Origin: Ophelia neglecta
Lineage: Eukaryota
Reading direction: 5' to 3'
Assembly (NCBI GenBank): GCA_965285935.1
Contig: OZ260661.1
Coordinates: 128,154,001-128,218,000, forward strand
DNA: 64,000 bases
Shown one piece after another: positions 6,403 to 64,000 of the stretch (positions within the stretch are counted from its first letter, which is position 1; each line of letters opens with the position of its first letter). Below the pieces are notes generated by a model, which ran no database searches, was not told the origin of the DNA, and saw only the letters and a program-made list of their open reading frames with translations. Position numbers and translations under genes: made by a program.

Positions 6403-7163
6403 CGCCCCCCCCCACCAGCGGCCCCTCCCCCCACCCGCGCCCCCTCCCCAACCAGCGCGCCCTCCCCCCACCAGCGCCCTCCCCCCACCAGCGCCCTCCC
6501 CCCACCAGCCCCCCCCCACCAGCGCCCCCCTCCCCCACCAGCGCCCCCCTCCCCCACCAGCGCCCCCCTCCCCCACCAGCGCCCTCCCCCCACCAGCGCC
6601 CCCCAACCAGCGCGCCCTCCCCCACCAGCGCCCTCCCCCCACCAGCGCCCTCCCCCCACCAGCGCCCCCCCAACCAGCGCGCCCTCCCCCACCAGCGCCC
6701 CCCAACCAGCGCGCCCTCCCCCACCAGCGCCCCCCAACCAGCGCGCCCTCCCCCACCAGCGCCCTCCCCCCACCAGCGCCCTCCCCCCACCAGCGCCCCC
6801 CAACCAGCGCGCCCTCCCCCACCAGCGCCCTCCCCCCACCAGCGCCCTCCCCCCACCAGCGCCCCCCAACCAGCGCGCCCTCCCCCACCAGCGCCCCCCA
6901 ACCAGCGCGCCCTCCCCCACCAGCGCCCTCCCCCCACCAGCGCCCTCCCCCCACCAGCGCCCCCCAACCAGCGCGCCCTCCCCCACCAGCGCCCTCCCCC
7001 CACCAGCGCCCCCCAACCAGCGCGCCCTCCCCCACCAGCGCCCTCCCCCCACCAGCGCCCTCCCCCCACCAGCGCGCCCTCCCCCACCAGCGCCCTCCCC
7101 CCACTAGCGCCCCCCCCCCACCAGCCCCCCTCCCCCACCAGCCCCTCTCCCCCACCAGCGCCT
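6403..7163. repeat. C-rich (G-rich on minus) minisatellite of CCACCAGCGC(GC)CCTCCCC-type 17-21-bp units
   Basis: About 760 bp of tandem variants; opens five overlapping low-complexity ORFs, a sign of a stop-free repeat rather than a gene. Confidence 0.92.
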
Positions 7164-7265
7164 CTGTAAGTTTCCTCTCCCTCCTTCACCCCTTTTCTGC
7201 TACTATACTACTACCCGCCTCCCTCCTTCACCATGCAAGATTCCCAGACCACCTCTTTCAGCCTG

Positions 7266-7441
7266 CTATGAGCTACCCCCCCCCCCCCCCTCTCCCCGCA
7301 ACCTTCGCCCTGCAGGCTACCCCAGGGGTAATCGACCCCTCCCACCTTATCCTATGAGCTACCCCCCCCCCCCCCCGCAACCTTCACCCTGCAGGCTACC
7401 CCAGGGGTAATCGACCCCTCCCACCTTATCATGTGAGCTAT
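7266..7441. repeat. Local tandem duplication, about 86-bp unit x2
   Basis: CTATGAGCTA(C)n..GCAACCTTC(G/A)CCCTGCAGGCTACCCCAGGGGTAATCGACCCCTCCCACCTTATC starts at 7266 and 7352. Confidence 0.9.
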
Positions 7442-7829
7442 CCCCCCCCTCCCCCATCCTCTTTCATTCTGCTGTAAGCACCTCCCCCCCCCATCCCCCG
7501 GTGTTTCTGAAAAAACAGGAGGTAGGACCTATCCATTGTGTAGTCTCCCCCGTAACACCCCCACCCCCTCTCCTCTGACTTCCTACCGTCCCCCCTACCC
7601 CTAAACCCTCCTATTCCTCTCCTAAATCCGCCCTTCGTACAGTGTTTTATTGTGATATTGCGGCTCTCTATTACCCTGTAGGTACTTATCAATCATTCAT
7701 CGCCTTTGTATTTAGTTGTTTGAACGGCCTTGCCCACGTTGCAGGGCTCACAAAAGATCCTATACGACTTTGGGTATTGTTATTAACGCAATACCTATAT
7801 ATCGAGTGGTTGGTAAAACCGTAATCCAT

Positions 7830-18080: not shown

Positions 18081-19385
18081 AGTTATGGAAAACGTCCCTT
18101 TGCAAATAACCCACGCAATAACACCCAACAATTTATTTCATTTATGTCCCCATACGTTGGTCTCTGACTTTTGTTTTGTGCTATGACTCAACAAAAAAAT
18201 TGTTGACTTATGTTTTCAGAATTTACGCACCCTACGCTGTCTATAGTTATGAGACACGAACATGTGCAAAATACAGTTTAATCCATTGCCCACTGCCATC
18301 TGTCTATACATCTGTGCGTTGTTAACGGAAATTAAAAGTTAAAAAGATGGTAGCAATGGTGTACTCCTTCATATTAACATATTTATTCTGGGTAGCCCTT
18401 TCATGTTTTCTGTTATGCCAAAGGGCCCGTCACGTGAAGAATACTTTAGGTGTACCAATAAACAAAACAATTTCGCATTTTTCACCAAATATGTCTGGCA
18501 CCATCTAAATGTCAATTTAAAAGTCGAATATCAATGTTTAGTTTTCTAAGCATCCCATTAAAGTGTCTTGGGTGTCTGTATTTTCCCTAGTAGTCTAAAT
18601 ACCATCTGAACGGAAGGCTGAACTGTGTATTTTACTAAGGTTAATAGTTACTTGTGATCTAATTGAGAGTACAACCACCACCCTCTCCCATACACACACA
18701 GACAAGGCACGTTACTATCTGACATCCTACCCACAGGAATTATATATGGTACCTAGACATATATATGGCGCCTACTCTCACCAAGCAGACCGTTCATGCA
18801 TGTATGATGAGCTATATGGTCTGATGACCACCGGGCTTCGCCGTAAATAGAGCCAACCGTTTAGGGAATATCCGGGATCCGCGAAATGGTACCACCGTCC
18901 AGCAAGCAACTCAACGCGCACATAACGACGCTCTTATGGCCGACAGTACGGTAAGTCATTTAACCAAGCGCCCTGATCACTTCGTTATTTGTGTTATAAA
19001 TAAGGAGATTTGGCAGCCATTGTCCATAAGACCATCTGTATGCCCTTCGCTACCCACCTGACCGAGCAGTGGCATGCTCGATAACGCTAATCGAGGAATC
19101 GAATATAGAACCCTTAGCCTACCAAAGACGAAATTGGAAGAATTGTAACAACAAAATAAATGGCGGCAGACATGCGCAATAGACGTTTGCAGTCAGGCGG
19201 CCCCGACTTATAATCATACTGACAAAAAATCGGCTTACATTAAAAGTTTCAGGATTATTATATAAAATAGTCCATCGTTCCCTCTCGAACACATAGGCAC
19301 GACCCTTCTCAATCTATAACCCCACACAGCTAGTCCAAGAGGGTCATTTCCACATCTATTAAAACTCCTTTTCGTTTGTACCTAC

Positions 19386-20090
19386 CTTTGCTGGTTTTGA
19401 TGACATGGGCTCTTCCAGAAAAATATTAATCCGCCTCCGCCAAATCTGCCATTGCGTGGCGTGGCCAAGGTCTGGTGCCATATTGGCGTATTCCGATAGA
19501 GTTTTCGATTCGAAAGCTTCGTCTATGCGCTCGAAAATCTTTTTTTCTTCCTCAAACTCCCGGTATCTGTTCCAGCAGCAAGGGCTGATGTCTGCTTCAT
19601 CCACGTTCCAGTACATGAGTTCCTTTTGAATGCTTGGGCCGCAAAAGTGATGTGGAAAATGTAATTCATCACAGCGGTAAAAGTCCAATATATAACCAAA
19701 CATGATAGGATTCCGGTCGAAGAACCACTCGCCGCTCTCCTTGTGGTAGTTAGGGTCACTCTCGCAGAGGTTGGACAGCCTCGTGCCTGGCACGTGATCT
19801 AGTGTTCCTCGCGTGGTGACGAAGACCTGACCGCCAACGTTGATCCGGATGAGTTCCATGCTGGAGTCGGGCACGTCCAGCGGCGGGCTCGGCTGACTGT
19901 TAGGGATCGTCAGCTCCATCCTACTGTTGGGGAAGTTTTGGTTGCTGGTGGCGCTGGTGGTTGTGCTGTTATTGGGGCTAGTGTTGTAGTTTCCTAGCAG
20001 TCGGTCTAAGCTCTCGGCCATTTCCATCCTCCCCGGACTATCTCCCGGGCTAGAGCAGGACTCCTCGGAGCTCACAACATGGTGTTGCAT
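19386..20090 (-). CDS. Shaw/Kv3-like voltage-gated potassium channel alpha subunit, first coding exon (N-terminus + T1/BTB tetramerisation domain), 235 codons
   Basis: INVGG..F.T...TL..VPGTRLS, EWFFDRNP..F.YILDFYR..ELHFP..CGP....EL.YW, PCCW (Shaw-type H/C/CC zinc site) and pre-S1 IFLEEPMSSKPAK, followed by phase-0 donor AAG|GTAGGT at 19386/19385. ATG at 20090 is the first in-frame ATG; the true start is uncertain. Confidence 0.93.
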
Positions 20091-21649
20091 TCGTTCGTCA
20101 ATCAGCTTATACTTCCACACGAAAATAAACGAATCTTACATTGCACGGCTATTTTACAACTACAGGGGATTTGCCTATGGCATCATTATTGTTTTGTTAG
20201 CGGAGTGACACGGGTGTGACGCGGTTGGTTAAATAAGCCGATGGCAAATGTTTGTATTACCGCTCAAGTCAGCAACACTAATTCTCTTAACCCTATCCTT
20301 CGAGTATTGGCTACAGCGAAACGTGCAGCGGTTTCATCCAAAATTATTGATTAGCCTATTGAGTATGTCCGTACTTCTTGGAAAGTGGATAATTAGAAAT
20401 ACCCAATTAATTTCTTCTTATCAGCTGCTAGCTTTACCCAGGCTAACGATTAAAACTGGTCGTGCTTCAATCTCTCGCGCGGTGCGTCTTCGTCGAATTT
20501 ACACTATCTCGATCATTTCAAGTCTTACAATGTGTAATTGACCGGCGACTTGTCCAGTCATTGATCCGCTGTCTCCTTGGGCGTCCGACAAACGCTGAAT
20601 GCGGACTAGCCAATTTGGTAGGCTTTTCTTGTGGGAAATCAACAACTTACGCGACCGCGGGTTGAATAACAAATGGTCTAAGAATACAAGGAAAGGTCTG
20701 CGAGCACTTCTTGTTATTTGAAAAGTCCTTTCTGAATATAATTCCAATTAACTGCTGGTATATTATGCTGGTCATTTCTATCCTTCGTGTACCAACGCAC
20801 TTATCGGATTAACAGAATCCTGACATCATTTAAATTGCTGTTTATTCCAAAGGGTCGACAAGAGGTATTGCTTTCACAGCATTTCACAGTACGCTTGCCG
20901 GATAGTAATTGCTGAACAAACATGGTTAATTTCAACTTTATCGGAACAGTCCGTGTCAAAATGTTCGACCAATTTATATTATTAACAGAGAGGATTAATG
21001 GTTAATAAATGTTAGGCGACTGGTGTCATGATCTACTGTTACCTGAACACATTCAATGGGCCAACCCTCACATTAAGCCGTGCATTTGGTTTTTCCGTTA
21101 ATTACCTACTGTAGATTCTGCATGCCTCGCACCGTTCACGTTGTTCCACAGGTAATCAATATGTTAAAATATACATAGAACAAGGGCCTCAATGTAACAT
21201 ATGGGCTGTTCAATACTCGAGTTTGCTCGACAACTTTAAGTTCACCTTTCATGCGATTCACAATTATTGTCTGTCAGGGCATAGCATATGAAGTGGACAT
21301 TTCCTACGACTGAACAAAAGACTCCATGGCTGAAAATCTATAATCTCGCGAAAGCTTTTCCTCCACACAACATTTTGTATACCAGAGTAAGTATTGAACC
21401 GATATCACCAACGGATTGACTGCCACGATATGTCTCCCTCACGCTCTAATTCAGAGCTATCTACCAGGAAGCTGTCCCAAGGAATCTCCCCTCCTGCTTC
21501 ACCCGCGGTATCGAATCGAGCTGGGGTATATTGTTGTCAAGGAGCCTATATCTTGAGCAAATGACTGATATGTAGGTTCCTTTGAGCACGGAGCTCTAGA
21601 AAATAAAATTGAGCATGTTAAAAGGTTTCTGATTGGTTTAATCCGGCTG

Positions 21650-35600: not shown

Positions 35601-36868
35601 TGTAGGCATCAGACTAAAATGAAAAATACATACTCGGATATCTCTTTCATACATTAGTTCTCCATGAAATATTTGTTTCTTTCACATTAACAGGTAGGAA
35701 GGAAACACCAGTAAAAAACATTCCTACTGCTAAATCTCCATGTCATCTGAATGTTTTTCCAAGCTCTTCAAACCTTTTGCTGATCACTGTTTATTAAATG
35801 GAAATCAGGCTTTGTGGTTAGAAATGTGGCTGCTGGCTGACAGTATTCAATATTTCAGATTGGTCCTATGTGGTGGAAGAAACCTTGATGGCATTATTCA
35901 TTGCTGCACATCCACTGATGGGTATATAAATGGATTTCATTTTCCACCTCATGATTAAAAAAAACAGCCAATGCTTTTTATCAGCTGGTACAAGATTTTT
36001 TAGCATGTAGTCAGATCCCACTAGAGGTGCTGTTAAGACGTAATATTGAAATAGCATGACGGATGCCAATTTGGGTTAATACATATCCTTAAAGATAAGC
36101 TTCGCAAAAACGCGTGAGAAGTGTTGGATTTTCTGATCCATTTGTAATGTAATGGCCTATTGACAGCCAAGAGTCATCAAATTTACCACGACAAAAGCCT
36201 TTATAGCTTTGAAATGCACGACAATACCTCGTTTATCGGTCGAGCTTGCAACTAGAGTAGTAGTTATAGAGGTTATATGAAGCTTATGATTCGTGTATCT
36301 AGAATCTTTATTTCTTATTTAGACTATCCAATGTGGTGTTCTATAAGCATTAAAGGACGAGGGGCAGGGGCAACACCCGAATGTATAGGAAAGTGAAATG
36401 GGAGGGGTGGATGTGGGAAGGCACTGTATAACAGAAAGCGTCGGGAATAAAGTCTCGGAACAAGTATCCGGAAAATAAAACATAGCAGGAAATAAGGCAT
36501 CTGGAAATAGTACCAGTATCAAGCCAATGTAATTTTTGTATGAATTATTTTCTCATTCCGCCATGTCAATGATTTGTCAAAAAACCTTTGGTAGACTAAC
36601 ACAATAAAAAATGGTGGCCTTAGTATAGCAATTAATGAAGACTTTTAATGAAGGTGTGGTTGGCATACGAACCTACTCCACTAAAACTGAAGAATGCAGG
36701 GAAATTGTTTTTGTCTAGTGTAAGAAAGTGTATAATCTAAATATTTCTGATGTAGAAATATATATGTATATGTTTGCTGATTTTTATTAACTTATAGCTT
36801 AGCATTATAGCATACATATAATATTTTCTCTGTAACTTTACCTCTTTTTTTTCTGTAGGAATATATAT
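32700..36868. repeat. Duplicated block B, copy 2
   Basis: Collinear with B1 and B3; shared ORF-track peptides (MASVMLFQYYV.. at 35866 and 56761). Confidence 0.93.
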
Positions 36869-37213
36869 ATAGATCTTTATTTCCTCCATTTTCTGAAGAG
36901 TACATTAGAAAATAACAAACTATAAGTGTAAATCAACTAAACAGAACATAGTGAAATTATAATCAAGGAACAATATATTTACAAGGTAACGGCCATATAA
37001 CAGGGAGCGATACTAGAATAATACACACGTATAATAAAAGAAAAGCCGGTTCACTTAGTCCACACAGTACTACTCACTACTCAAAAGCATGACCATTGAA
37101 TGTACCTTGCCAGCGATACGTATCACAAATATATATACAATTAGTAAAATCAAGGCGTACAATTATGTGCTGAATTATGACTGTTACAAATATATATTCA
37201 TAAGGTTATTGAT

Positions 37214-40200
37214 TCAACACCACAAGATAGGTTTGCAATGTTCACAATTCCATACGTGCAGTCCTACCCTGTGCCAGGCTATAATGCATTCCTTGGCAAA
37301 TTCAAACCTATCATACGTTACGTCATTAATAGAAATGGACAGTCCAAGAATATGAAGCACCAAATCATAGTCATCACACATCATTAGGTGTCTCTCAATT
37401 TCTACCGGCCACAGACTGGTTGACAGCCAGAAGATCTCTCTCTCGGTACAGAAATTGGGACAATTACATATAAAATGAGATAAAATATCACGGAACTCAT
37501 GGTCACAAAGATGGCAGTGGCCGGGGATGTTACATGGGACTGCTAACAGCGACGCGAAGGAGTACAGAGCCTGCCAGTGGACAGGGTGATGGCGCTGGAT
37601 GTCCCATACCCACCAGTCTCCCTTAGGTGAAGCAAAGTTCACATCGCCAATTACAGACCCTAACCGCGACAGTCGCACATCACCAGTAATAAGTTTATGT
37701 GTGTCTTCGGTCTCGATCTCTTTAACACGAGCTTTTACAGTACGTTTCCATTCAACAAAACTTGGAAATATAGAAAACCTTAGATACTGTTCTAAAATAT
37801 CCACCAGTCCATACTTCTTAAACAAGGACATCACATCAAATATAAAACCACTACTTCCCGCGGCGCCGTGGAAAGTCCACATACATAGTCGTTTGACAAA
37901 TATATTATGGACTAGGTGATTAGTTCCAAGCAAACAAAGCCTACCAAAGAATAATAGTTTTTGGCTGTCAATATAGCTTTCTGCTGAGTTCCAGCCGAGG
38001 AGAGTGTACACAACAGCAGTTCTAGCTCGCGTATGGAATCTGAGAATTTTCTTAGCGCAATACTTTTGCATTGCCTCCAACTTTTCGGTTTCCTCTTTGG
38101 ATAGATTTGCCCAGAGTTCACAAGCGAAGAGTGCACTCGGTCGAACCACAGCTTGGTAGAGTTTGGCCAATGTCCGTGGGCTTGACCCTAGGCGACACAG
38201 TGAGGCCATGCGGCCTTTACCCTTTGCACAGACGTCAATGGTCCTTCTTAACGAAACAAAGGACTCGTTAAGTTCTACACCAACATGTGTTTCACAAGTG
38301 TCTCTCGTGAGCGCTGTGCCCCCGAGAGTCCATCTATATGATGCCTCGCGCTTTTGTCTCGATCTCCCAAACATTATGGTCCGAGACTTTCCCGGGTTGA
38401 ACAGAAAGCGCCATTTGGCTGCATAGTTCCAACAAATGTCCAACATACTTTGAAGCCCGTCAGGGGACAGCGACAGAAGCACGATGTCATCGGCTTGGGT
38501 AGGGCACCCGCAGAAAGTCCCTGCCACAGTAGCCCCACAGCCAGAATTTTGCAAAGCCCTTAGGAGTTCATCATACAGAATCATAAATTTCTGAGGTCCC
38601 CAGACAGAACCTTGTCTCACGGACTGATTGACATCTACCACGTGTGACAGCGCACCGTTGAACCTTACACGACACTTCATACCCGTATACGAGTGCAGCA
38701 AAAGTCGCCAGAACCCACCGCGGATTCTCATCTCATGGAGTTTTACGAACAGGCCCTTGTGCCAAACTAAGTCAAATGCCGTAGCCGAGTCAAGGAAACA
38801 CGCAAATACCTTTGACCCACGCTCAATGTTGTATCTGACGCACTCTAGCACAACGAATGAGGTCATTGTACTGTTTCGCTTTTCCTGGTATGCACCTTGT
38901 AATGGGTGTGGAAACAGTACTTTATTATTTTCGATCCACGCAAGAAATCTGTTCAAGGTCACCCGCTCAAACACCTTGAACAAAACCGGAAGTAACGTGA
39001 TTCCCCGATGGTTCTTTCTATCATCAGAGTATTTTTTGTTACCTTTGTATATCGTGATGACGTGGGCGACCTTCATGCTAGCCGGTACTTCAGCCATCTT
39101 GTACATGAGATTGAATAAGTATGCGAGCCATTTAATAATTGGCTGTCCGCCGAATTTCAAATGCTCGTTAGTGATTCCATCATGACCTGGAGCCTTGCCT
39201 CTCTTCAGCTTACGAACTACCATATTAACCTCACCCTCCGTGATGGGTGAACACATAATATTGTCACGTTCTTCCAAGGATGATTGTAGGATGGCTTTGA
39301 ACGTGTCCTCAGTTCTGACCTTGTGGTTTTCATCAAAATTTGGATCACATAATGGGGTATACAGTCCAGTAAAATGTTCGTGCCACGCGTTAAGGATGTC
39401 CTCTGAACCGCGGTAAGTTTTACCCTCCACACACAACACCGGGAGGTGAGTACCTATTTTGTTTTGGCACCGTCGAACCAGAGTAAAAAGTTTCTTTTGA
39501 TCACTCTCTGCAGTGCTTTCGATTTCTTCAAATATGTCCCTGTTTAATAAGTGCTCCTGTCTTCTTAGGGCACATCTGTACTTAGTCTTAATAGTTTTAT
39601 ACTGGGCGTAAGAAACATGGTCCCTTCCTTTTGGTTTTCCAGATGCTTTCCACTGTCCCCTAACTTCGCGCAACTGCTCGTGTATTTGGGGCAGGTCAGA
39701 GTTTTTCCAAAAGGCTTAAGGTTTTTATTGTATGGCGTACTGGGAATGGCATTTTGCGCACTTTCTTCTAGAGCGGCCACCATGTTTTCGTAAAGGTCAT
39801 TCACGTTTGATGACAAATGATCCGACTTATTCATCCGATTCATTAACGAACGCAGTCGATCGTTGAGCGTTTCCTTGTATTCCTCTTTAATGGACAAGTT
39901 AGCGGCGAGCTTATTCCAGCATGGCCTGGTACCAAGGTCATGTCCGACCGACGACCCAGTTGCCAGCAACGGTTTGATATTTATCGCAGCTAAAACCGGC
40001 AGGTGGTCACTCACATTGACTGGATCGTGAACGATTACTTCATTACGGATCACCAGATCCACTACAGACGGCTGGACGAGTACATGATCGATCCTGCTTA
40101 ATATGTCTGCAGTCTGCTTGAATGTGTAATCGGGACCAGAACATGTAAGTAGAGAAGTCAAACAGGTAAGCCCGCAGCGTCGGACCAGTTCGGCGACACA

Positions 40201-40731
40201 TTTTGATCTTCGGCTCTCTTTAAAGCCAACATAAGGGGGGCCATCAATCCTGACATTAAAGTCGCCAAGGATGATCACTTCACTATATATGCTTAAGTCA
40301 TTGTATAAAGTCTGCAGCTTATCAACGTGGTCTTCAAATAATGAGTCAGGTTTGTTTGTAGAGGGGAGGTATACATTTAACACTGTTAAGTAGTGCCTCT
40401 CACTCTCGTTTAGTGTAATTTGAAGTCCACATATCCGGTCGTCCTGAAAGTGTTATCTCTTTATATTATTGGACAACGCTTTTTTCCATAGGAATCCAAT
40501 TCCTCCTTTTCCCCTACGGTACGGGTCGAGTGGGTCTAGGCAAGAGTCAGTAATGCCCCACCCTGAATAACAGGGACTTATGGAGTCTAGGACCTGGGTG
40601 CTATTGGGAAACAACCAGTGTTCCGAGAGGGCGAGTATATCAACATCCTGGTGCATGAGGAGTTTATCAATGTATACAGCGCTCCTTATGGCCCCTTGAC
40701 AATTGAAGCTGGCCAAACTCAGTTTTTCCAT
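37214..40731 (-). pseudogene. LINE ORF2 (AP endonuclease + reverse transcriptase + C-terminal CCHC), about 1170 codons, two lesions
   Basis: SFNCQG, LSEHW, GGIG, NVYLP, GDFN, RIDH, SDHLP; KAPGHDG, RGITLL, FLDSATAFD, VRQGS, QADD, CHLC..H..C. In-frame TAA at 40455-40453 and a 1-nt loss in a T-run near 39710 (KPFG versus expected KPFWKN). Confidence 0.93.
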
Positions 40732-40762
40732 TTTACTTTGTATTCTAATAGCCATAATTACA

Positions 40763-41504
40763 TTAGTGGTCGTTTCTGTCATACCACTGACGGGCGTACT
40801 CGTTTTCGGGCCAAAACCCTTTGCTACACACTAGTCCTGAGAACTGAGGTTGGACACGGATGAGAGCGGCCTGATCGCCTGTCTTTCTGCTATGAAAAAG
40901 TCTACATTCCAGGCACTCTACGCCTTTGTATTTCAGGAAATCTAGCAGTGATTTAGTATCGACCGCAGTGTTAATGTTGCCAATGTATAGTTTAACACTT
41001 TCAGGTGGGCTCGTCGTTCTATACCTAGTCGAACGTGTCCATAACCTCGTAGGCCCATGTGCCCTGATATCATTTGGCTCCTTCTCGGGCTTGCGTGTAC
41101 TTGTTATCACGGGTATTGGCTTGGGGCTCGTTTCATAGATATGGGTCCTCGTCGGTTCCTTGCCGGTGACAATCCCGGGTACTTCTGATTGTGGATAACG
41201 GTTATGCTCTACCTTGTTTGTCTCAACCGCTAGCTTATCAATATCTTCAAAAATGCGAAGCATAAGCTGTCCATTTGTGCCCCAAAGATTATTTTCTTCC
41301 TTCTCGAATGTATTAAATTTATCTTTCAGAGTTTTGTGGTTGTATTTTATAACATTCATGGATCTTCCATTGGCTTCCTTTTCACTGTTTATTTTTATTT
41401 TCAGATCATGAATGGAATCTTTTAGTCTCTTGACGTCGGATAGGAGGCCCGGGTCATCTTCCTTACACGGCTTATTTTTTACCTTATTTACTTCTTGGAA
41501 TACT
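40763..41504 (-). CDS. LINE ORF1 C-terminal part (coiled coil + RRM-like), 5'-truncated
   Basis: Frame open from the 5' junction (FQEVNKVKNK..) to the stop at 40763; KLYIGNI..LLDFL....V....C..FWP....RQW is typical of LINE ORF1 ends. Confidence 0.8.
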
Positions 41505-41657
41505 TAGTGTAAGAAAGTGTATAATCTAAATATTTCTGATGTAGAAATATATATGTATATGTTTGCTGATTTTTATTAACTTCTAGCTTAGCATTATAGC
41601 ATACATATAATATTTTCTCTGTAACTTTACCTCTTTTTTTTCTGTAGGAATATATAT
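41505..41657. repeat. Right copy of 153-bp target-site duplication (left copy 36716-36868)
   Basis: 152/153 identical by eye; single mismatch at 36794 (A) versus 41583 (C). Confidence 0.93.
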
Positions 41658-41949
41658 TATATGTAGTATTTATCTAACATGAGGCAAACAGCCTGTGAGT
41701 TAGATGATACAATCTGGAGTTACATAGTGGTGGTGCGAGAAGATGACAACCCATTTTATGAATTCTTCACAAAGTAAGATTACAAAATCGAAATGTTTAA
41801 TAGTCAATGATATTACAAGTAGGCGATAGGCTTACAGCCACAAACACTGTTATCTTCAAACAATCTGAGTGAAATATATATCTTTTAAAATCTCACTGGA
41901 CGAGAAATAATCCACAAAATCATCACTTGACTTGCAATGTAAGTAACTA

Positions 41950-42560
41950 TCTATAATTTTGGTTGCCTTTTTTTAAATATATTTAAATTGCCAAATTAGT
42001 CAAAGCTTTGACATTGATAGATTGAATCAACAAAATATACTTCTGATAACTGGGTCTACTACTATAAAATCTGGGTATATACCTAGCCCTTAACTCAAAA
42101 TAAAAGCACTATTCAACCACAAAATGGTATTCATCCTCTAAATTATTACACATGATGCATGTTCTGTCAGAGTACTGGAGAGGCGGTCTACGCCATGCAC
42201 CAGTCTCATTGTGTAAATTATGATTTCTCGTTCGGAATTTACTTATGATTAAAGCTTTATCAGGCCGAAGTTTTAACATATGAAAAGGCATTTCTAAAGG
42301 CCTATCTATTTCTACATACATATGACCTCAGCTTGAACTTTCAAAATTTAAGCACCACTCTTGTCAATAACAATCAGATAATCTCTGTTTTAAAATGAAC
42401 AAAAATACATTCATACTCCCTGCTCCCTAAATAAACCGTACATCCCCATACCTATATTCACACAACATATCTCTCACCTGGGTATCCCAGGTTATTCCTT
42501 TGGTCGAATTCTTTAGCGCATTATATAGATTGAAAGGCAATTTATGCTGGTTTAGTTGTA
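41950..42560 (-). mobile_element. Old LINE 3' fragment (duplicated at about 58370-58975)
   Basis: WDTQVRD.LCEY, LKQRLSDC, ISKFRTRNHNLHNETGAWRRPP..RTCIMCNNLEDEYHFVVE. Confidence 0.85.
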
Positions 42561-43137
42561 GGGAACTACTTCTTACCAAATCGCCATTCCCCCTCCTAGT
42601 TCGAGCCCAACCTCAACCCTTCCAGACCGTCATACCTTGTGTACCTGCGTACATTCTTTGTTTTTCATATTTTGTAAAATGTGTGTGAATATTTCAGCGA
42701 ACTGTCCCCGGCCACATTGCTCGGTGTTGTTCGTGAATATCTAGAGCCTTGGCCAACTTCTCCTTTCAAATCCGGAAGATCAATGAATGTTAACAATATA
42801 TAGCCCAGCACGGCGGTTTAAAGTGAGAGATTAGCCAAATGAGCTTCCAGACATTTCCCTATTAAAGGTCAAATTGATTAGCAATCTTATTCTGTCTCTT
42901 GGCCATTCACGTCTTTTCATACAATTTAATTGGGTTTTTCCGCCAGGCGTCAGGGTAACCATCATCGTTTCCTAGGCATGTCCTCCTTGTTAAAGATTCC
43001 GTCGATCTATATGTTAATCCAAATCCCTACCTTCCACTAAATGTCAAACACAGTTTGTTTATGAACTCTTTGTGTTTTAATGCGTCTATCTATATCTATG
43101 AGGACATACATAGCCAACAAAACATTGTCAGCAATGG

Positions 43138-43382
43138 GGCATACTGGAAAACCTGATACGAAATACGAAGGAAATACGAGATACACAGATACGAAAAAAA
43201 TAAGATAGAGTTGGGTTATGACAGGGTTAGGGGTAGGGTTAATGTAGCAACCTAACTAAATCATATCTTACTTAACCCTTCACCCTAACCCTAACCTAGT
43301 CCATATGGCTACGTTTTAAACACCTGGTATCTCGTATCTGCGTCTCGTATCTGGTATTTCGTATCAGCTTTTCCAGTATGCC
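43138..43382. mobile_element. 245-bp MITE, 9-bp TSD, internal telomere-like repeats
   Basis: TIR GGCATACTGGAAAA(C/G)CTGATACGAAATAC (28/29 match); TSD CAGCAATGG at 43129-43137 and 43383-43391; single empty site at 59543-59551. Confidence 0.95.
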
Positions 43383-44860
43383 CAGCAATGGCAGCCTTTC
43401 AGATGTCAAAAGTGAGAACTCAGCTTGAAATTCGGTTTCTGTAGTCCCTTGACGTTTCCTTGTGGCGTCTTGGGTTTCTAGCCTTGAGGATGATGGCTGA
43501 AGACGGCATTTAGTCATCCGGTCTGTCGGACAAAGCGTTGTCTATGAGGCTAGATTGACAAGACTACTGTCATAGTACATGAAATGCTGAACCCGCGGGT
43601 AACATGCAGAACCAAACTAACATTTGTTTATACATAGTCATAAGACTAACAACATGTTATCTCGGATTTTTATTAACCATTCACATTCGCGCTACTTTTG
43701 TTATTTGCTAGCCATCTGCTTTATTTGACCGCGAGCGTGTTCCTCGGCAACGTTCAATTACTAGTATTGTTCCTGACGAAATAAGGAGCTGGCATATTAA
43801 TGGTAGTTTTTTGCTGTACACAGAATTCATCTGATAAGTCTTGTACTCTTACTGCCATTGCTACTACGTTCACCAGATTAACATGTGATTCTGTTATTCC
43901 CCGCGTAAAGGAGACGGGTAACTTTGAAGATGGGTGACCTTCATACGACCTTCATACGACAAAATAGATTAACCCCAGCATACAGGGTGTGAACTTCGAG
44001 ACTTGTGGTCTTTGAAAGAGCATGTCCTTTTCTGTCTGAATTAAACAAAATGCTCGTAGCCTAATGTGTCTTATTATAAACATTATTATAAAACAACGTG
44101 TTAAATAATGATTAATTAGAAGAAACAGGTTGGTAACTGATTAAAAATCAGAATAAGAAATATTTATTTCACCCAAACATCAAAGCATACAATTTATACT
44201 AACATTCATATTTAAAATAGGGAAATTATACAAAAAATTGAGCAGGGATGACTTATAATAAGATTTATAATACATTTCCAGCCCTAGCGGCGGGGCCACT
44301 TTACATTTTGATATATTAGTAGGTAAAAGTATTTTGTTTGTGTGCCCAATGTTAGTCGTATTTTTGTTTTATAATGTGACAACAAAAGCTGCAAGTTAGC
44401 TCGAAATTATTAAGAAGGCACTTAAAGAGTATGATATTAATGCCAAAATACAATTTAATTTTAGTATACTACATATTTATTTTACTAAAATCAGCTTAGG
44501 AAAATTGCTGTCCCTATTCCAGATACAAACTCTCCGTACCCTATGGAGAAAATCAATGATTCCTATAAAAGGATCCAGCCAAGATTGTGGAAATCTTGGC
44601 CCTGGAAATATTAACAACGTACGTAATATGTATTAAAGGCTTAGCATAGGGAACTTTTAACCACGTGAACATATCTCTACAGATCATATAAACATTAACA
44701 CTGCTAACCTTCTCCCAAGTATATGCTCTTCGCCAATTCAAAACATTAATACACAGAAAACTAGATCTTGCTTAAGCATGTTTTTTTTTGTAAAACCTAG
44801 ATATTTTTGGCGGAAACTATGAGATATTAGTTTTCATAACTTATGAAGAATTAAGATGAC

Positions 44861-45844: not shown

Positions 45845-46581
45845 TCATTCTAAACAGTGTCCCGAAAACTAAGTAAATGTTGTCTGTTTTCCATTTCCCG
45901 TCTGGACCGTCCAGCATCAGTGGCATTATTTCCTTTGAATTCTTCATCATTCGAAACTACATAATGAAAATTTGAGCTTTTGAATCCGCCATTTAACAAA
46001 ATCTTTTACAAATATTACCAAAATACTTAGTTGCAAACTCCCAATAATGGCCATTGCTAGTTGATTACGTCAAGTTATTTTCAAATAAGCATAGTGCATC
46101 CCAGATTGATAGGTCGAAACGTACCGTCATATACGGACCCTTGGTCATGAGATGAGCACTGAAGGAATACATGCCACTAATAGGACACACGAAATGACCT
46201 GTACCCGGGTTGTATCCATAGTGACTTGGAAATCCGCCATTCTCATTTAGGACAAGCCTGCTAAACCGAATTGTCGTCCCAACGCCAAATGCCACTGACC
46301 TAGCTTGGCCTACGCCTAGTTTCTCATAAAAGCCTAAGGTGGAGTCATGTAAAAATATCAGATTTATTGGCATTCAGAATAATTATGCATGGCTACAGTA
46401 AAAGGCTAGCAACCTTTGCGATAGTTTCGAATGAACCAGTGAAAATAATTTGACGACGGAATGTATTAACTGCTTTGTTATACGATTTAAACAATCTGTA
46501 GATATACTGACCTATTTTGCTAGTTTCTGCTCCGCTTACAATAACCGTCAGGAAAACGAAAAGAGCCCAGACTTTAGTCAT
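45845..46581 (-). pseudogene. C1q-domain gene copy G1, inactivated
   Basis: Exons 46581-46512, 46333-46125, 45956-45845; nearly identical to G3, but exon 3 lacks 83 bp (G3 62015-62097) and has TGG>TAG. Confidence 0.9.
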
Positions 46582-46975
46582 TTTGACTGCTATTTCACAG
46601 CTGTCAGAATAGTGTGTGTCCCAAAAGATTGAAGATCGCACGCTATATCCCTTAATAATAAAATATGTAGGCATAACAACTAAATACCGTGCTTATAAGT
46701 TCATAATAAGTAAGTGTATTTACCTTATTCCCTCATCAATAACACATACAAATGTCAGTTATGCCAATATTAAAGCTTAAAGGAAGCAAGAATCGGTTGC
46801 ACGCGGTGTCTGAAATCACCAAATCCATATATCGTGTCCTTTGTTAGTAGATTTAACATGATTTTTTGTTAATTCACATGTGTATATATAGTTTGCATAT
46901 CAAGTTATTGTGCTAATACGATTTAACCAGACTATGAAAGCAACATGTATTTTCGTCTCCTTAAAGTGCCTGTTA

Positions 46976-47391
46976 GGGACGGACCATTCAATATCTGGGG
47001 GGGGGGGGGGGCGACAATTTTTTTAAAAAAAATTGTTTGTTTCTGGTTATGCATAAAAAAATTGTTTGTTTCTGACTCTGGAAAAAATAAATTGTTTGTC
47101 TGATATTTTCTTTAAAAAAAATTGTTTGCATAAGCACTGATCCATTCTTCGATGGATTCTAAAAAAAAGGTTGGCCTCACGGCCAAATAATGACTTAACA
47201 CATAGGGTATAAAAGTTTGATCAAGGCTAGGGAAAAAAATATTTGACAGAGATTTGTTAGAAAAAAAAATTGTTTGCTTCCCAGATAGGAAAAAATAAAT
47301 TGTTTGTTTTTCCAAAGCTAGAATTTTTTTTGTTTCACTAGAAAATATTATGTCGCCCCCCCCCCCCCCCCAATATCTAATGGTGCGTCCC
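46976..47391. mobile_element. PIF/Harbinger (Tourist-like) MITE, copy 1
   Basis: TIR GGGACG(G/C)ACCATT..ATAT..(G)n, TSD TTA; empty site CCTGTTAACATGC near 51700; internal AAAAAATTGTTTG repeats. Confidence 0.9.
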
Positions 47392-48155
47392 TTAACATGC
47401 TATGCCTTTCTTCTGCGGTTTTGAAAGGCCTATCATATATTCCATATCAAATACTTCTTCTTAAGTACAATTTTTTAACGACCGTGCACTCAGAATTCTG
47501 AAACTTCCAAGACAACTATTCAACGTGCTGTTTTCTATCAGGAGTGATTAAATAAAGGGGGCTTTTTTGTAGCTTTTGATTAAAAGCTGAGGTGATTGCT
47601 GAGGTACATCTCAAGATAGGACACAACTTTAGAATTACATAACCTTGTTTAACCATAAAATTAACCCAAGTCCTAATTGTGGTGGTGTAGGGCTTTTGGG
47701 GAGAATTTAAAGCTAGGTTTGCACAGGAAGGAGTCACTGCTCAATCGGGATCGGAAGCCTTGGAGAGGGGGGGGGGGGGGGTTAGGCAAGGGAGGATTGG
47801 CTAGAAAATAGTATAACTGGTATCATGGATAGTTTTATAATATATAGTAATATTAGGTATAAAAATATATTTTTCGGCTCTATACCCTTACTGGGAAGTT
47901 TAATGAGTGGCGAGTGGCAAGAGAGAGCAGGAATCGGCTCGGGATCCGATGCGTTGCAGAGTGGCACTCGTGCAGGCCAAACGGAAGTATGCTCTGCAAA
48001 AGAAATGCCACAGAACAATGTAATGTTTGCAGCCAATGTAGACAGCCATTTTCGGTTTTGAGATGTTATACAACACTTTTTGTCCAGATTTGATTTAGCT
48101 TTAGTAGTTATCGTAAATTCATTTATTTATTTATTTATTTATTTATAACTGCTAA

Positions 48156-49755: not shown

Positions 49756-51305
49756 TTAATCAGCCCCAACAAGATGTCCAGAGAACCATGACCACATATG
49801 ATGGAGAGTAGCTGAACCACCATGCGTGCCAACGACGAATACATTCTCTCCCCGTTTACAGTGGATGTCTATGGTACCGCCGTCTGTTTTCCATCTTTTG
49901 TCGACCCCTTCCAGCAGCAGATCCATGATATCTTGTGCATCTTTCTTCATTTTAAACTTTAAACAAAAAAATCAGCCATATAACCAATATTGAGCATTTA
50001 TTCCCTTTTATTCGTAAAACATATCCATTCTATACATTTAATTAACCATAAAAACCTGTGAATAATGCAAGAATCAATTATAACCCCCCCACAAACCCAC
50101 CGCCACCGTCACGCCAACCCCACCCCACCACCAGGCATACACGTATTATCTGAAACCTACGCGTTGATAAGTGAGGCAGAGACTACTACCGCCAATTTAC
50201 GGGAATAAAAACAAATAATATAAAATATTTTGTTGCTAGCGCCACCTTCTTTGTGGCGGAAAATATAACAGATAGATAGATTATATATATAACCGATATG
50301 CTATTAACTAAAGACATAAGTTAGAATCGTGAAATGACCAGTTCAAATAAGCCCATGTGGCATGACTACTAAAATCAGGCATACCCGAGCATGACAGGAG
50401 CCATTTGCATGGGGTAAAATGGAGGGCGATCATCCCAGGCGTATAAAAGATGAACCTGTTCGGATGCCGCTAGGCAAGACTTAAACAGTGTAAAGCACAG
50501 CGGGTCCCTTGGTCGAACTTCTTGAACTTAGGACCGGCTGTTTGGGGTCCATTTTATTGTCCAAAAGATACAATATATGGAGATAACGTCTGGGTTATAG
50601 TCCCCAAAGTTTAGTAAAAGTGTTACCCCACCCTCCACTGCAGTGATAAACTCGAAACTTACAGTAGTATTCACATTCAAAATTATACATCGCCAGTTGA
50701 TTATACGGCAGCAAAATACTCTCTGTTTCAATAGGGCTACGAATAGTTTTACAAATTTATATGGCACCAGGTACCTCCATTATCCGATCCCTAGTCATGA
50801 GATGGGCACTAAAGGAGTAAATGCCACTGACAGGACACACGAAATGACCTGTAGCCGTGTTATATCCGTAGTGACGTGGAAATCCGCCATTCTCATTTAG
50901 GTAAACCCTGTCAAACCGGACTGTCGACCCGACGCCTATATTCTTTCGATGAGCTAACTTAGCATGGAAGCCTAAAGTTGATAAGGCCAAAGGTCAGATT
51001 TATTCGTATTCGACCCGACGCCAAATGTCACTGACCTAGCTAGGCCTAGTTTCGCATAAAAGCCTAAAGTTGCGTCATGTAAAATATCAGATTTATTGGC
51101 ATTCAGAATAATTACGCAGGTTAGAACAAATGGCTAACAACTGTTTAATTAGTTTCGAATGAAAATAATTTGACGACGGAATGTATTAACTGATTAGTTA
51201 TAAGATTCAAACAAACTATATATAGATATACTGACCTATTTTGCTAGTTTCTGCTCCGCTTACAATAACCGCCAGGAAAACGAAAAGAGCCCAGACTTTA
51301 GTCAT
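49756..51305 (-). CDS. Secreted globular-head C1q-domain protein G2 (155 aa if the distal acceptor is used)
   Basis: Exons 51305-51236 (signal peptide, G|GTCAGT), 50971-50775 (TTTAG|, GAG|GTAC), 49956-49756 (AAAG|). Phases 1/0 join in frame: MTKVWALFVFLAVIVSGAETSKIGFHAKL..VRFDRVYLN..YNTATGHFVCPVSGIYSFS..GENVFV..WFSGHLVGAD. Confidence 0.8.
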
Positions 51306-52405: not shown

Positions 52406-53199
52406 ATAGATGACTAACTGCTTCCGGCATTCTGGCAAAGTCCCAACATGCAATACCTGGAAGTCATTATATTCATCTATCGAAGAATCTATATGCCCTT
52501 TATACACCCGACTGGGTTTTAAGGATTTTTCCGATAGGCATGTTTAGAGCTAGCTATAGGCTTAGGGTATATTGTAACACTACTTACTACTATTGAGGCA
52601 ACATGGTAATGTCAAATAATAATTAGAGGACATAAGTGGATAACTGCATGTGATGTAAAATTTATGATAAGAATCTGAATCAAAGATATTTATTTTACCA
52701 AAATATCAAACAATACAATTAATACTTACAGTCAGAATAGCAAGACATTTTTACAACATTGGGGCATAACAGGGATAACTCCCTGTAGAATTATGTTTAA
52801 TCGCACGTCTCGGATCCATCTGTTGTTCCAATAAATTTCATAAGTGACCGTCTTATGCTATAGAGCCCACAACATATCTGTCGAAGTTTGTTAAATAATG
52901 AAATCAATTAAGTTGTAAGTAAGCTTAAACTTATCATAATTTTGTCCAAATTTGATTTAGCTTTAGTATTTATCGTAAATTCATTACACTTAAGTCAGTT
53001 GTAGAAACTGTTGTGATACAAAGCTTTTTTATATCCAATAAAATCACTCATTGCTGTAGAGATTTGACAATCCCTGTGAAAATGTTGAAGCTGCAAATGC
53101 AAACAAAATATTGACGTAATATAAAGGGAAGTAATATAATAAATGATAGTATATGAAATGAACTTTATTACCCATTTCAAAATATTACAATTGCTGGCT

Positions 53200-53780
53200 T
53201 TTCCTTAAGTATGCTTTTCTCCCATTGAAACAATTGGAACCAAAACATATACCTTTTTGCAAATATTCGTTGGCACAACCTGATGTACGCTGTTTGCACA
53301 CAACCGTTGTAGACTTTTGATCAAAAGGAGTCACATAATATATATAGTGCACAGACTTCCGTTCTTCCATATACGAGCCCTTGGACATGACATTAGTACT
53401 AAAGGAGTACATCCCACCGAAAAGACAGACAAAATGACCTGTGCTCGGGTTATATCCATATACTCTAGGAAGTCCGCCATTTTTATTTAGGTAAACTGTG
53501 CTAAACGGGACTGTTGCCCCGACGCCTGTCATCTTTGAAGGTGCTAACTTAGCATGAAAGCTAAGTTGATTAATGGAAGTGGTCAGATTTATTAGCATCC
53601 AAATTAATGACCCAGTCTATAGGAAATGCCACGCAAGCACATTTGTAAAATCATAGGGCTAGAATAACTTGACAACGGAATATTTAGGCTTTAAGATTTA
53701 AATGATCGATAACTATACTGACCAATTATGTGAGTCGGTGCTCTGGTTAGGACAAACCCCAATAATACCAATAATACATT
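53200..53780 (-). pseudogene. C1q-domain relic G4
   Basis: Exon-2 homolog at about 53560-53365 (FHAKL..GVGATVPFSTVYLNKNGG..YNPSTGHFVCLFGGMYSFS). Exon-1 remnant with donor G|GTCAGT at 53723 has no in-frame ATG; acceptor is 1 nt out of phase; exon 3 is missing and exon 2 runs into G2-like 3'UTR sequence. Confidence 0.8.
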
Positions 53781-57620: not shown

Positions 57621-58120
57621 GTCTAGTGTTAGAAAGCGTATAATCATAAATATTTGTCTGGTGCAGAAATTTAAATGTATACAATGGTTGATTTTTATTA
57701 ACTTCTAGCTTGGAATTATAGCATACATGTATTATTTTCTCTGTAACTTTCCCTCTTTTTTCAGTAGGAATATATAGTATTAGCAGCCAATGTAATTTTT
57801 GTATGATTTTTCTCCTTCCGCCATGTCAAAAAACCTTTGGTAAACCAACCCATTAAAAATGGTAGCCTTAGTATAGCACTTACAAAGACTATTAATGAAG
57901 ATATGGTTGGCATAAGAACTTACCCTACTAAAACTGAAGAATGTAGGGAAATTTCTTGTTTTCTAGAGTAAGAAAGCATATAATCCTAAATATTTGTCTG
58001 ATGTAGAAATATATATGTATATGTTTGTTGATTTTTATTAACTTCCAGCTAAGCATTATAGCATAGGCCTACATGTAATATTTTCTCTGTAACTTTCCCC
58101 TATTTTTAGGAATATATAGT
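57429..58120. repeat. Diverged local tandem duplication, about 356-bp unit x2
   Basis: AGCCAATGTAATTTTTGTATG starts at 57429 and 57785; single-copy in B2 (36522 onward). Confidence 0.85.
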
Positions 58121-61976: not shown

Positions 61977-62796
61977 TCATTCTAAACAGTGTCCCGAAAA
62001 CCAAGTAAATGTTGGATGAAGGGTAACTGGACCCTTCGTCCGGCCTTCGACATAGACAGTTTCTCCCTTACGACATTGTATGTCTATGGTCCCTCCGTCT
62101 GTTTTCCATTTCCCGTCTGGACCGTCCAGCATCAGTGGCATTATTTCCTTTGAATTCTTCATCATTCGAAACTACATAATGAAAATTTGAGCTTTTGAAT
62201 CCGCCATTTAACAAAATCTTTTACAAATATTACCAAAATACTTTGTTGCAAACTCCCAATAATGGCCATTGCTAGTTGATTACGTCAAGTTATTTTCAAA
62301 TAAGCATAGTGCATCCCAGATTGATAGATCGGAACGTACCGTCATATACGGACCCTTGGTCATGAGATGAGCACTGAAGGAATACATGCCACTAATAGGA
62401 CACACGAAATGACCTGTGCCCGGGTTGTATCCATAGTGACTTGGAAATCCGCCATTCTCATTTAGGACAAGCCTGCTAAACCGAATTGTCGTCCCAACGC
62501 CAAATGTTACTGACCTAGCTTGGCCTACGCCTAGTTTCTCATAAAAGCCTAAGGTGGAGTCATGTAAAAATATCAGATTTATTGGCATTTAGAATAATTA
62601 TGCATGGCTACAGTAAAAGGCTAGCAACCTTTACGATAGTTTCGAATGAACCAGTGAAAATAATTTGACGACGGAATGTATTAACTGCTTTGTTATACGA
62701 TTTAAACAATCTGTAGATATACTGACCTATTTTCCTAGTTTCTGCTCCGCTTACAATAACCGTCAGGAAAACGAAAAGAGCCCAGACTTTAGTCAT
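61977..62796 (-). CDS. Secreted globular-head C1q-domain protein G3, intact, 157 aa
   Basis: Exons 62796-62727, 62548-62340, 62171-61977 with GT-AG sites, 474 nt in frame: signal peptide MTKVWALFVFLTVIVSG, then GFYEKL..IRFSRLVLN..YNPGTGHFVCPISGMYSFS..GETVYV..WFSGHCLE (gC1q aromatic motifs; no collagen tail). Confidence 0.9.
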
Positions 62797-63198
62797 TTTG
62801 ACTGCTATTTCACAGCTGTCAGAATAGTGTGTGTCCCAAAAGATTGAAGACCGCACGCTATATCCCTTAATAATAAAATATGTAGGCATAACAACTAAAT
62901 ACCGTGCTTATAAGTTCATAATAAGTAAGTGTATTTACCTTATTCCCTCATCAATAACATTTCGGTCAATACAAATGTCAGTTATGCCAATATTAAAGCT
63001 TAAAGGAAGCAAGAATCGGTTGCACGCGGTGTCTGAAATCACCAAATCCATATATCGTGTCCTTTGTTAGTAGATTTAACATGATTTTTTGTTAATTCAC
63101 ATGTGTATATGTAGTTTGCATATCAAGTTATTGTGCTAATACGATTTAACCAGACTATGAAAGCAACATGTATTTTCGTCTCCTTAAAGTGCCTGTTA

Positions 63199-63540
63199 GG
63201 GACGGAACATTCAATATCTGGGGGGGGGGGGGGGGGGGCGACAATTTAAAAAAAAAATTGTTTGTTTCTGGTTATGCATAAAGAAAATTGTTTGTTTCTG
63301 ACTCTGGAAAAAATAAATTGTTTGTCTGACGGCCAAATAATGACTTAACACATAGGGTATACAAGTTTGATCAAGGCTAGGGAAAAAATATTTGACAGAG
63401 ATTTCTTAGAAAAAAAAATTGTTTGCTTCCCAGATAGGAAAAAATAAATTGTTTGTTTGTCCAAAGATAGAATTTTTTTGTTTCACTAGAAAATATTTTG
63501 TCGCCCCCCCCCCCCCCCCAAATATCTAATGATGCGTCCC
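63199..63540. mobile_element. PIF/Harbinger MITE, copy 2 (internally deleted)
   Basis: Same TIRs and TTA TSD at the paralogous position; shorter than copy 1. Confidence 0.9.
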
Positions 63541-64000
63541 TTAACATGCTATGCCTTTCTTCTGCGGTTTTTAAAGGCCTATCATATATTCCATATCAAA
63601 TACTTCTTCTTAAGTACAATTTTTTAACGACCGTGCACTCAGAATTCTGAAACTTCCAAGACAACTATTCACATAACCTTGTTTAACCATAAAATTAACC
63701 CAAGTCCTAATTGTGGTGGTGTAGGGCTTTTGGGGAAAATTTAAAGCTAGGTTTACACAGGAAGGAGTCACTGCTCAATCGGGATCGGAAGCCTTGCTGC
63801 CCCAAATTTGCGATGGGGTAGAGGGGGGGGGGGAGTAGGCAAGGGAGGATTTGGTAGAAAATAGTATAACTGGTATCATGGATAGTTTCATAATATATAG
63901 TTATATTAGGTATACAAATATCTTTTGGCTCTATACCCTTACTGGGAAGTTTAATGAGTAGCGAGTGGCAAGGGAGAGCAGGAATCGGCTCGGGGTCCGA

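Follow-up and report, generated by a model that had tools for sequence, protein, structure and literature searches.

How did a long interspersed nuclear element (LINE) in the genome of Ophelia neglecta come to lie between two almost identical direct repeats of 153 bp, and is the cause to be sought at this one locus or in the element itself? The LINE is found in a stretch of 64,000 nucleotides (assembly GCA_965285935.1, contig OZ260661.1, positions 128,154,001 to 128,218,000, forward strand), called the window below, and window positions are counted from its first letter. The feature at 36716..41657 is real: it is a target-site duplication made at insertion. Taken alone, this locus is an event of an already known kind. 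What is new here is the pattern at the level of the clade to which the LINE belongs, in which long duplications are found beside a LINE family of the same host that behaves normally.

The 153-bp repeats and the LINE between them

The two repeats (36716-36868 and 41505-41657) agree in 152 of 153 letters, the sequence diverges sharply beyond both sides, and a chance origin is excluded (E 6e-73). The parts of the insertion, with its open reading frames (ORFs), and the two related units elsewhere in the window are the following:

36716..36868, no strand: target duplication, copy at the 3' side of the LINE; carries a derived A at 36794
36861..36871, minus strand: (TA)n tail of the LINE, of variable length on 10 of 10 subfamily copies
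36869..41504, minus strand: 5'-truncated LINE copy, 4,636 of ~5,800 bp, 99.0% identical to the nearest copy
36872..36887, minus strand: conserved 3' motif of the clade, GGAGG-N-AATAAAG, preceding the tail; located by genome pattern search
37214..40731, minus strand: ORF2, with APE endonuclease, reverse transcriptase (RT) and a C-terminal CX2CX8HX4C motif; assembled from ORF pieces and Pfam matches (PF03372, PF14529, PF00078)
40763..41503, minus strand: 3' half of ORF1, the remainder removed by the 5' truncation; from the ORF list, without a Pfam family
41505..41657, no strand: target duplication, copy at the 5' side of the LINE; near-blunt junction to the truncated LINE, with 0-1 shared letter
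57624..57776, no strand: older tandem pair (340-356-bp units), paralogous unit 1; without LINE, 85% identical
57964..58118, no strand: paralogous unit 2 of the same pair; without LINE, 84% identical

The only mismatch between the repeats is an A at 36794 facing a C at 41583. A C stands at the equivalent place in both paralogous units, as well as in the empty-site contig described below, and the A is hence the derived letter. The paralogous region at 57.4-58.1 kb is not the source of the 153-bp repeats, because the units there are just 84-85% identical to them. An earlier reading of the window, made from its letters alone (the sequence-only reading), had already set the repeats clearly apart from the units at 57624 and 57964, and this holds. 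Two lesions disrupt ORF2 in the window copy: near 39708, the frame is shifted by 1 bp, and near 40454 there is a stop.

According to the sequence-only reading, the 3' end of the LINE merged into a (TA)n run of the target. However, all 10 copies of the subfamily share the 3' end motif followed by a (TA)n run of variable length, while their flanks differ from copy to copy; the run is thus the tail of the element. Eight of the 11 tail letters (36861-36868) match the target too, so that the length of the duplication lies between 145 and 153 bp.

Public contigs covering the region come from three runs of one sample. In a contig of 765 nt, which lacks the LINE, a single unit stands between 24 letters of left flank and 590 of right flank; relative to the window, this contig shows 9 letter differences and 2 gaps. 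Contigs from the other two runs are shorter and likewise run from the left flank into the unit. The 765-nt contig, weak but direct evidence, is the empty haplotype, which holds a single unit and not an already doubled one; this supports a true target-site duplication. Together with the 152/153 identity, it bears out the 153-bp duplication that had been proposed around the 4,636-bp LINE.

The insertion site is the border of two older dispersed repeats, 41663-42100 (copies of ~80% elsewhere) and 36522-36868 (74-80%). An exon to the right of 41657, with a splice site restored by the duplication, was considered and dropped, the stretch 41663-42100 being the dispersed repeat with its many copies.

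The LINE clade and its target duplications

In the 762 Mb of genome scanned, the subfamily of the window LINE has 10 copies with a 3' end, ranging from 445 to 5,800 bp. The full-length element measures ~5,800 bp and has an ORF1 of ~530 codons; uninterrupted frames of 532 and 1,205 codons are present in two other copies. Sister subfamilies carry the same 3' motif. A genome search with the pattern of motif and tail gave 184 matches, some of them double, and the reversed control gave 0.

In total, 122 3' ends (10 + 16 + 78 + 18) were examined, each with 7.5-8.5 kb of upstream sequence. Eleven of them are post-insertion copies of others and were merged, leaving 111 independent insertions, some of which, without a relative or an ORF2 match, are possibly tiny fragments or other families. 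L108, L117 and L118 were excluded (no tail). Repeats in an array, of low identity or lying across an element end were not counted (the C15 copy, L112, L150, the long match of L159, L168, L173, L259, L261 and L268). The survey is blind to duplications over ~2 kb around full-length copies.

A direct repeat beginning exactly at the tail, with just two occurrences per locus, is present at 15 of the 111 insertions. The duplicated units measure 78, 112, 125, 127, 148, 153, 176, 246, 300, 353, 606, 631, 795, 1801 and 2491 bp (median 246), and they occur across subfamilies at 36-99% ORF2 identity to that of the window. The members of a pair are 95.5-100% identical by substitutions, roughly following element age, and in two pairs one member was afterwards interrupted by an insertion (2.2 kb and 210 bp). 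The 5' junction could be pinned in 11 of the 15 upstream copies: eight within ~10 bp through a longer near-identical copy, the 148-bp and 1801-bp cases through collinearity with a full-length 5' end, and the 78-bp case through ORF2 homology starting 13 bp on. All 15 belong to insertions of at least 800 bp (15/44 vs. 0/31 shorter ones, P 2e-4), and the link to length is also seen for the 11 pinned cases alone (P 0.002).

Short duplications are few. A scan of 67 junctions revealed four, two measuring 17 bp and the other two 8-9 bp (shuffled junction pairs reach at least 8 bp in 3/600), and most junctions have none; with a minimum of 12 bp, the count is 2/67. Long duplications therefore exceed short ones 15 to 2 in the clade. 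Empty paralogues of three duplication-free copies show ~160 bp, 21-27 bp and 0-3 bp lost, the first two belonging to copies of the window subfamily and the third being a near-blunt join. The target matches the tail over 3-8 letters, mostly TAT plus one.

The sequence-only reading had the LINE priming on TA microsatellites, each insertion copying host DNA. Neither part is supported: the matches to the tail are too short for the former, and, regarding the latter, ~1 in 7 insertions of the clade made a long duplication, and the 9 other copies of the subfamily are all free of duplications at their ends, long or short, within ~7.5 kb of flank. It had also called for a table of duplication lengths over all copies, with a peak near 150 bp as support and ordinary short duplications as the opposite sign. 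The table upholds long duplications as a trait of the element lineage, clade-wide (15/111), and lacks both a case among the 9 other subfamily copies and a firm peak at 150 bp; ordinary duplications appear as the two 17-bp cases in the clade and in none of these 9 copies.

The trait can be compared with two controls. Random TAT points in host DNA show a repeat of at least 60 bp at 95% identity or more in 3/296 cases, all within one tandem array. A young LINE family of the I group in the same genome, of which 34 copies were picked for long frames, carries short duplications in 25/34 (24 called at 7-18 bp, one by eye). Four of its copies sit in tandem arrays and were left uncounted (L224, L236, L238, L239), and the others have no long two-copy repeat. 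In a length-matched comparison, long duplications are found in 15/44 of the clade insertions of at least 800 bp vs. 0/34 in the control (P 7e-5). Since this second family leaves ordinary duplications in the same host, the host is able to complete LINE insertions in the normal way, and the trait follows the element. The data support that the element lineage, and not a general host defect, is what long duplications depend on.

The I-group family itself (L206-L239 and further listed copies) is abundant, with a (CCAAAT)n tail and many uninterrupted frames of 1,234-1,237 codons; its copies are densely clustered on C7 (96-97 Mb) and C15. An RNase H-like stretch is recognizable by eye in its ORF2.

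What kind of element the clade represents can be read from ORF2 and from the copies. ORF2 combines an N-terminal APE endonuclease with an RT (PF03372, PF14529, PF00078), as in APE-type LINEs, and its best relative of solved structure is L1 ORF2p (E 2e-41). The copies are those of a dispersed LINE: a common 3' end, a simple-repeat tail, variable 5' truncation and no terminal repeats of their own. The 1,205-codon ORF2 stops 50-60 residues past the CX2CX8HX4C motif and shows no further Pfam domain beyond APE and RT, hence no restriction-like endonuclease (RLE) as in Dualen/RandI. No RNase H match was obtained in ORF2 at E 0.1, which separates the clade from the I group. R9 has an RLE nuclease; the targets here, compared with the R9/R2 group, share only TAT, and the duplications vary from 17 to 2,491 bp. 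Dong, Waldo and Mino are LINEs that target microsatellites and insert within long runs of simple repeats; here, alternating letters in the pre-insertion copy number no more than 8 and mostly 3-4.

The clade would probably belong to Proto2 or RTEX (RTE group), judged by resemblance. The likeness lies in two ORFs, APE and RT, a microsatellite tail and ~5.8 kb; two ORFs in ~5,800 bp agree with Proto2/RTEX, although this is not diagnostic alone. The mean consensus length given for bivalve Proto2 in PMC10294476 is 5,675 bp. Among 57 homologues there was no named reference, and the look-alikes of ORF1 are likewise unnamed. In the papers searched, no mention of the 3' motif of the clade and no statement on Proto2 or RTEX duplication lengths was found.

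Several loci deserve a separate description. In 5/9 metagenome relatives at ~35% protein identity (L240, L242-L245), the 3' motif is conserved in front of an AT-rich tail, and it is a handy tag for the clade; the 9 metagenome loci, from other samples, are too short for both flanks, and 7 prokaryote matches cover the endonuclease only. A full-length copy on C2 (L066, ~7240-7675) has a 216-bp tandem duplication across its 5' junction, in which 32 bp of flank and the first 184 bp of the element are present twice. L150 (C1:131.297 Mb) and L258/L259 (C9:5.12 Mb) show duplications of 285 bp and 3.1 kb across the 3' end of the element. These either arose afterwards by tandem duplication or represent a second insertion at the tail of the first one, with duplications of 85 bp and 1.8 kb. 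The array at L260/L261 (C9:7.93-7.95 Mb) contains, among LINE pieces that are themselves repeated, four or more occurrences of a 1,037-bp unit that directly adjoins the element at both ends; unequal crossing-over between long target duplications is a possible origin. At L113 (C1:118.41 Mb), a 7.4-kb insertion lies inside one 127-bp duplication and is made up of two pieces of one LINE arranged head to tail, of which the first lacks a 3' end.

Origin of the long duplications

The best reading of the 153-bp repeats is that a two-ORF LINE, here 5'-truncated, had its landing site copied, and that the clade of this LINE leaves duplications of 78-2,491 bp or none, likely as the element nicks the first strand only and does not set the distance of the second break (probability roughly 0.6). 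In the standard model, as presented in PMC2666801 and PMC2881922, where the break in the second strand falls determines whether a duplication, a blunt join or a deletion results, and the ordinary duplications of 12-18 bp are believed to stem from a second cut that is structurally coupled (PMC12809410). The mixture of duplications, blunt joins and deletions, with few cases of 10-20 bp, is what would be expected if the coupling of the second cut were absent.

The series of events may be pictured as follows. The APE domain would nick a site containing TAT, where the (UA)n tail of the RNA pairs with 3-8 target letters and primes reverse transcription. As no coupled nick is made 10-20 bp away, the cDNA flap would persist, until it joins a break in the top strand, host-made or made late by the element, across 0-3 microhomologous letters. 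A downstream break would give a long duplication (145-153 bp in the window), an opposite or upstream one a blunt join or a deletion. Long cDNAs may keep this intermediate open longer, which would explain why long duplications are found only on insertions of at least 800 bp. The same broad pattern is described for L1 in cells deficient in nucleotide excision repair (NER), for which a distal, unrelated nick was proposed (PMC5223499).

Several points weigh against this reading. The mechanism is deduced from footprints alone, and within the subfamily of the window, the duplication is one event in 10. In four of the 15 cases (176, 246, 606 and 795 bp) the 5' junction is unpinned, one of them with a gap of ~380 bp, and these are graded as probable. 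Only three empty paralogues stand for the duplication-free majority, and the ~160-bp loss among them sits in a tandem array, where it is indistinguishable from a long duplication. The link to length could reflect a quicker recombinational loss of short inserts between their repeats. The short side of the empty-site contig, with 24 letters, is under the 31-letter threshold for bridging, and no contig among those listed spans the filled junctions, an absence that proves nothing in itself. The comparison within the host is made with one control family. Finally, 6/15 sizes fall within 100-200 bp (112-176).

This last point speaks for the second cut being placed at a distance of about one nucleosome (150 bp) from the first, which the sequence-only reading had supposed. 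The excess at 100-200 bp over log-uniform nulls has P 0.014-0.053 with the discovery case and 0.04-0.12 without it, the extremes being a 20-2,500 bp null with all 15 sizes (0.014) and a 70-2,500 bp null with the discovery case omitted (0.12). In addition, one deletion measures ~160 bp, and 300, 606 and 1801 are near multiples of 150. However, nine of the 15 sizes are outside 100-200 bp, and the last-fetched set added 353, 631 and 795 bp, none in that interval. The sizes as a whole are consistent with a log-uniform distribution over 70-2,500 bp (Kolmogorov-Smirnov P 0.44), and a scan for periods of 140-200 bp gave nothing that stands out (P 0.31; 16 sizes, one afterwards dropped as an array). 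With this spread around a median of 246 bp, the fixed 150-bp rule is rejected; a mild mode near 110-180 bp is possible, and a nucleosome-set cut is improbable as the general cause.

The main rival places the event at a replication fork, where the cDNA-extended end would join the broken end of the sister chromatid, or switch template to it, so that the stretch replicated past the nick is doubled without a staggered second nick. The wide range of sizes, the occurrence of deletions beside duplications and the association with long cDNAs all fit, as do the duplications lying across one element end, with 216 bp at a 5' junction and with 285 bp and 3.1 kb at 3' ends, and L1 insertion has been tied to forks and Okazaki fragments (PMC12809410). 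Its footprints are identical to those of an uncoupled second break, and the present analysis separates neither; yet the control family inserts in the same cells with ordinary duplications, and the fork scenario is considered unlikely, though the most plausible of the alternatives. Far less credit is due to a LINE that landed bluntly between pre-existing tandem units, later homogenised by gene conversion. The paralogous region does contain a tandem pair, and several clade copies lie in arrays, but the window copies are 99.3% alike and only 84-85% identical to either paralogue, the repeat directly adjoins the element on either side, only a single unit is present in the empty haplotype, and each of the 15 units occurs just twice per locus, array cases having been excluded. 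An artefact of assembly, with filled and empty haplotypes merged, is equally improbable: four of the 15 pairs are without a substitution and the filled junctions were not seen in public contigs, but substitutions separate the other 11, the later insertions of 2.2 kb and 210 bp each mark a single copy, all repeats begin at the tail, and the equally young control family shows none.

Comparison with known systems and other features of the window

Long duplications are rare for two other LINEs: zebrafish ZfL2-2 in DT40 cells gave 1/25 (PMC2666801), and 5'-truncated L1 in HeLa cells at most 10% over 100 bp (PMC2912911, PMC5223499). These systems resemble the clade in that duplication, blunt join and truncation arise from a shifting second cut (PMC2666801, PMC2912911, PMC5223499); short duplications dominate there, whereas the ratio of long to short is 15 to 2 here. 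Human L1 in NER-deficient cells is alike as an APE-RT element with duplications from over 100 bp to kilobases, explained by a distal, unrelated second nick (PMC5223499). That case depends on a defect of host repair. Here, a second LINE family of the same host makes ordinary duplications, and the cause thus lies with the element.

Another likeness is to the LINE Dualen-4b_cRei of Chlamydomonas reinhardtii, for which more than half of the insertions have duplications over 50 bp, with a median of 900 bp (PMC9977147). Dualen possesses both RLE and APE nucleases, whose dual action is suggested by the authors as the cause (PMC9977147). Both are LINEs often flanked by long duplications of variable size. 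In contrast, the clade described here shows APE and RT only, in a genome whose C1q-domain and Kv-channel-like genes suggest an animal type, and its evidence comes from resident copies (~1 in 7; 1 in 3 of the long ones) and not from new mutations. R9 of bdelloid rotifers, with a 126-bp duplication as cited in PMC9977147, is likewise an animal non-LTR (long terminal repeat) element with a duplication over 100 bp; it is specific for a ribosomal DNA site and has one fixed length, whereas the clade has dispersed sites, duplications that vary 30-fold in length and an APE nuclease. In the literature searched, mostly without subscription papers and Repbase Reports, no animal LINE clade with APE alone was found described as leaving long duplications routinely.

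The balance tips slightly towards a broader proposal, in which a widespread marine-invertebrate clade of single-APE LINEs lost the coupled second-strand cut; its normal footprint would be a deletion or a host duplication of 0.1-2.5 kb, and long insertions could each create a small segmental duplication with LTR-like flanks. If true, this would be the first animal LINE lineage in searchable papers that is not site-specific and has a habit of long duplications, and two nucleases would not be needed for it. Second-strand cutting and priming are described as the open half of LINE integration (PMC2881922, PMC12809410). The clade beside an ordinary family in one genome would offer a natural contrast for locating the part of ORF2 that couples the two cuts; since intact clade copies exist, the question is testable in a standard retrotransposition assay. 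For the genome, the clade is a maker of small segmental duplications, the 15 units summing to ~8 kb, and its flanking repeats could drive precise loss of the insert or tandem growth. Annotation tools limited to duplications of 5-30 bp would miss the boundaries of such elements.

Other features were seen elsewhere in the window. Four stretches coding for C1q domains, ~50% identical and located within duplicated blocks, lie on the minus strand (46119-46382, 50775-51032, 53188-53616 and 62325-62597). An open frame at 19362-20135, also on the minus strand, has a BTB_2 domain (potassium-channel T1-like) and ends at a likely splice donor. Nested segmental duplications of 87-97% identity are present at 25-37, 33-47 and 55-64 kb, with offsets of ~7, 16, 21 and 28 kb. 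Short elements resembling miniature inverted-repeat transposable elements, with inverted repeats of 30-42 bp, are found at 43137-43383, 46975-47392 and 63198-63541, the first being absent from the paralogue near 59550. A C-rich 17-bp minisatellite at 6403-7162 comprises 45 copies and is open in many frames.

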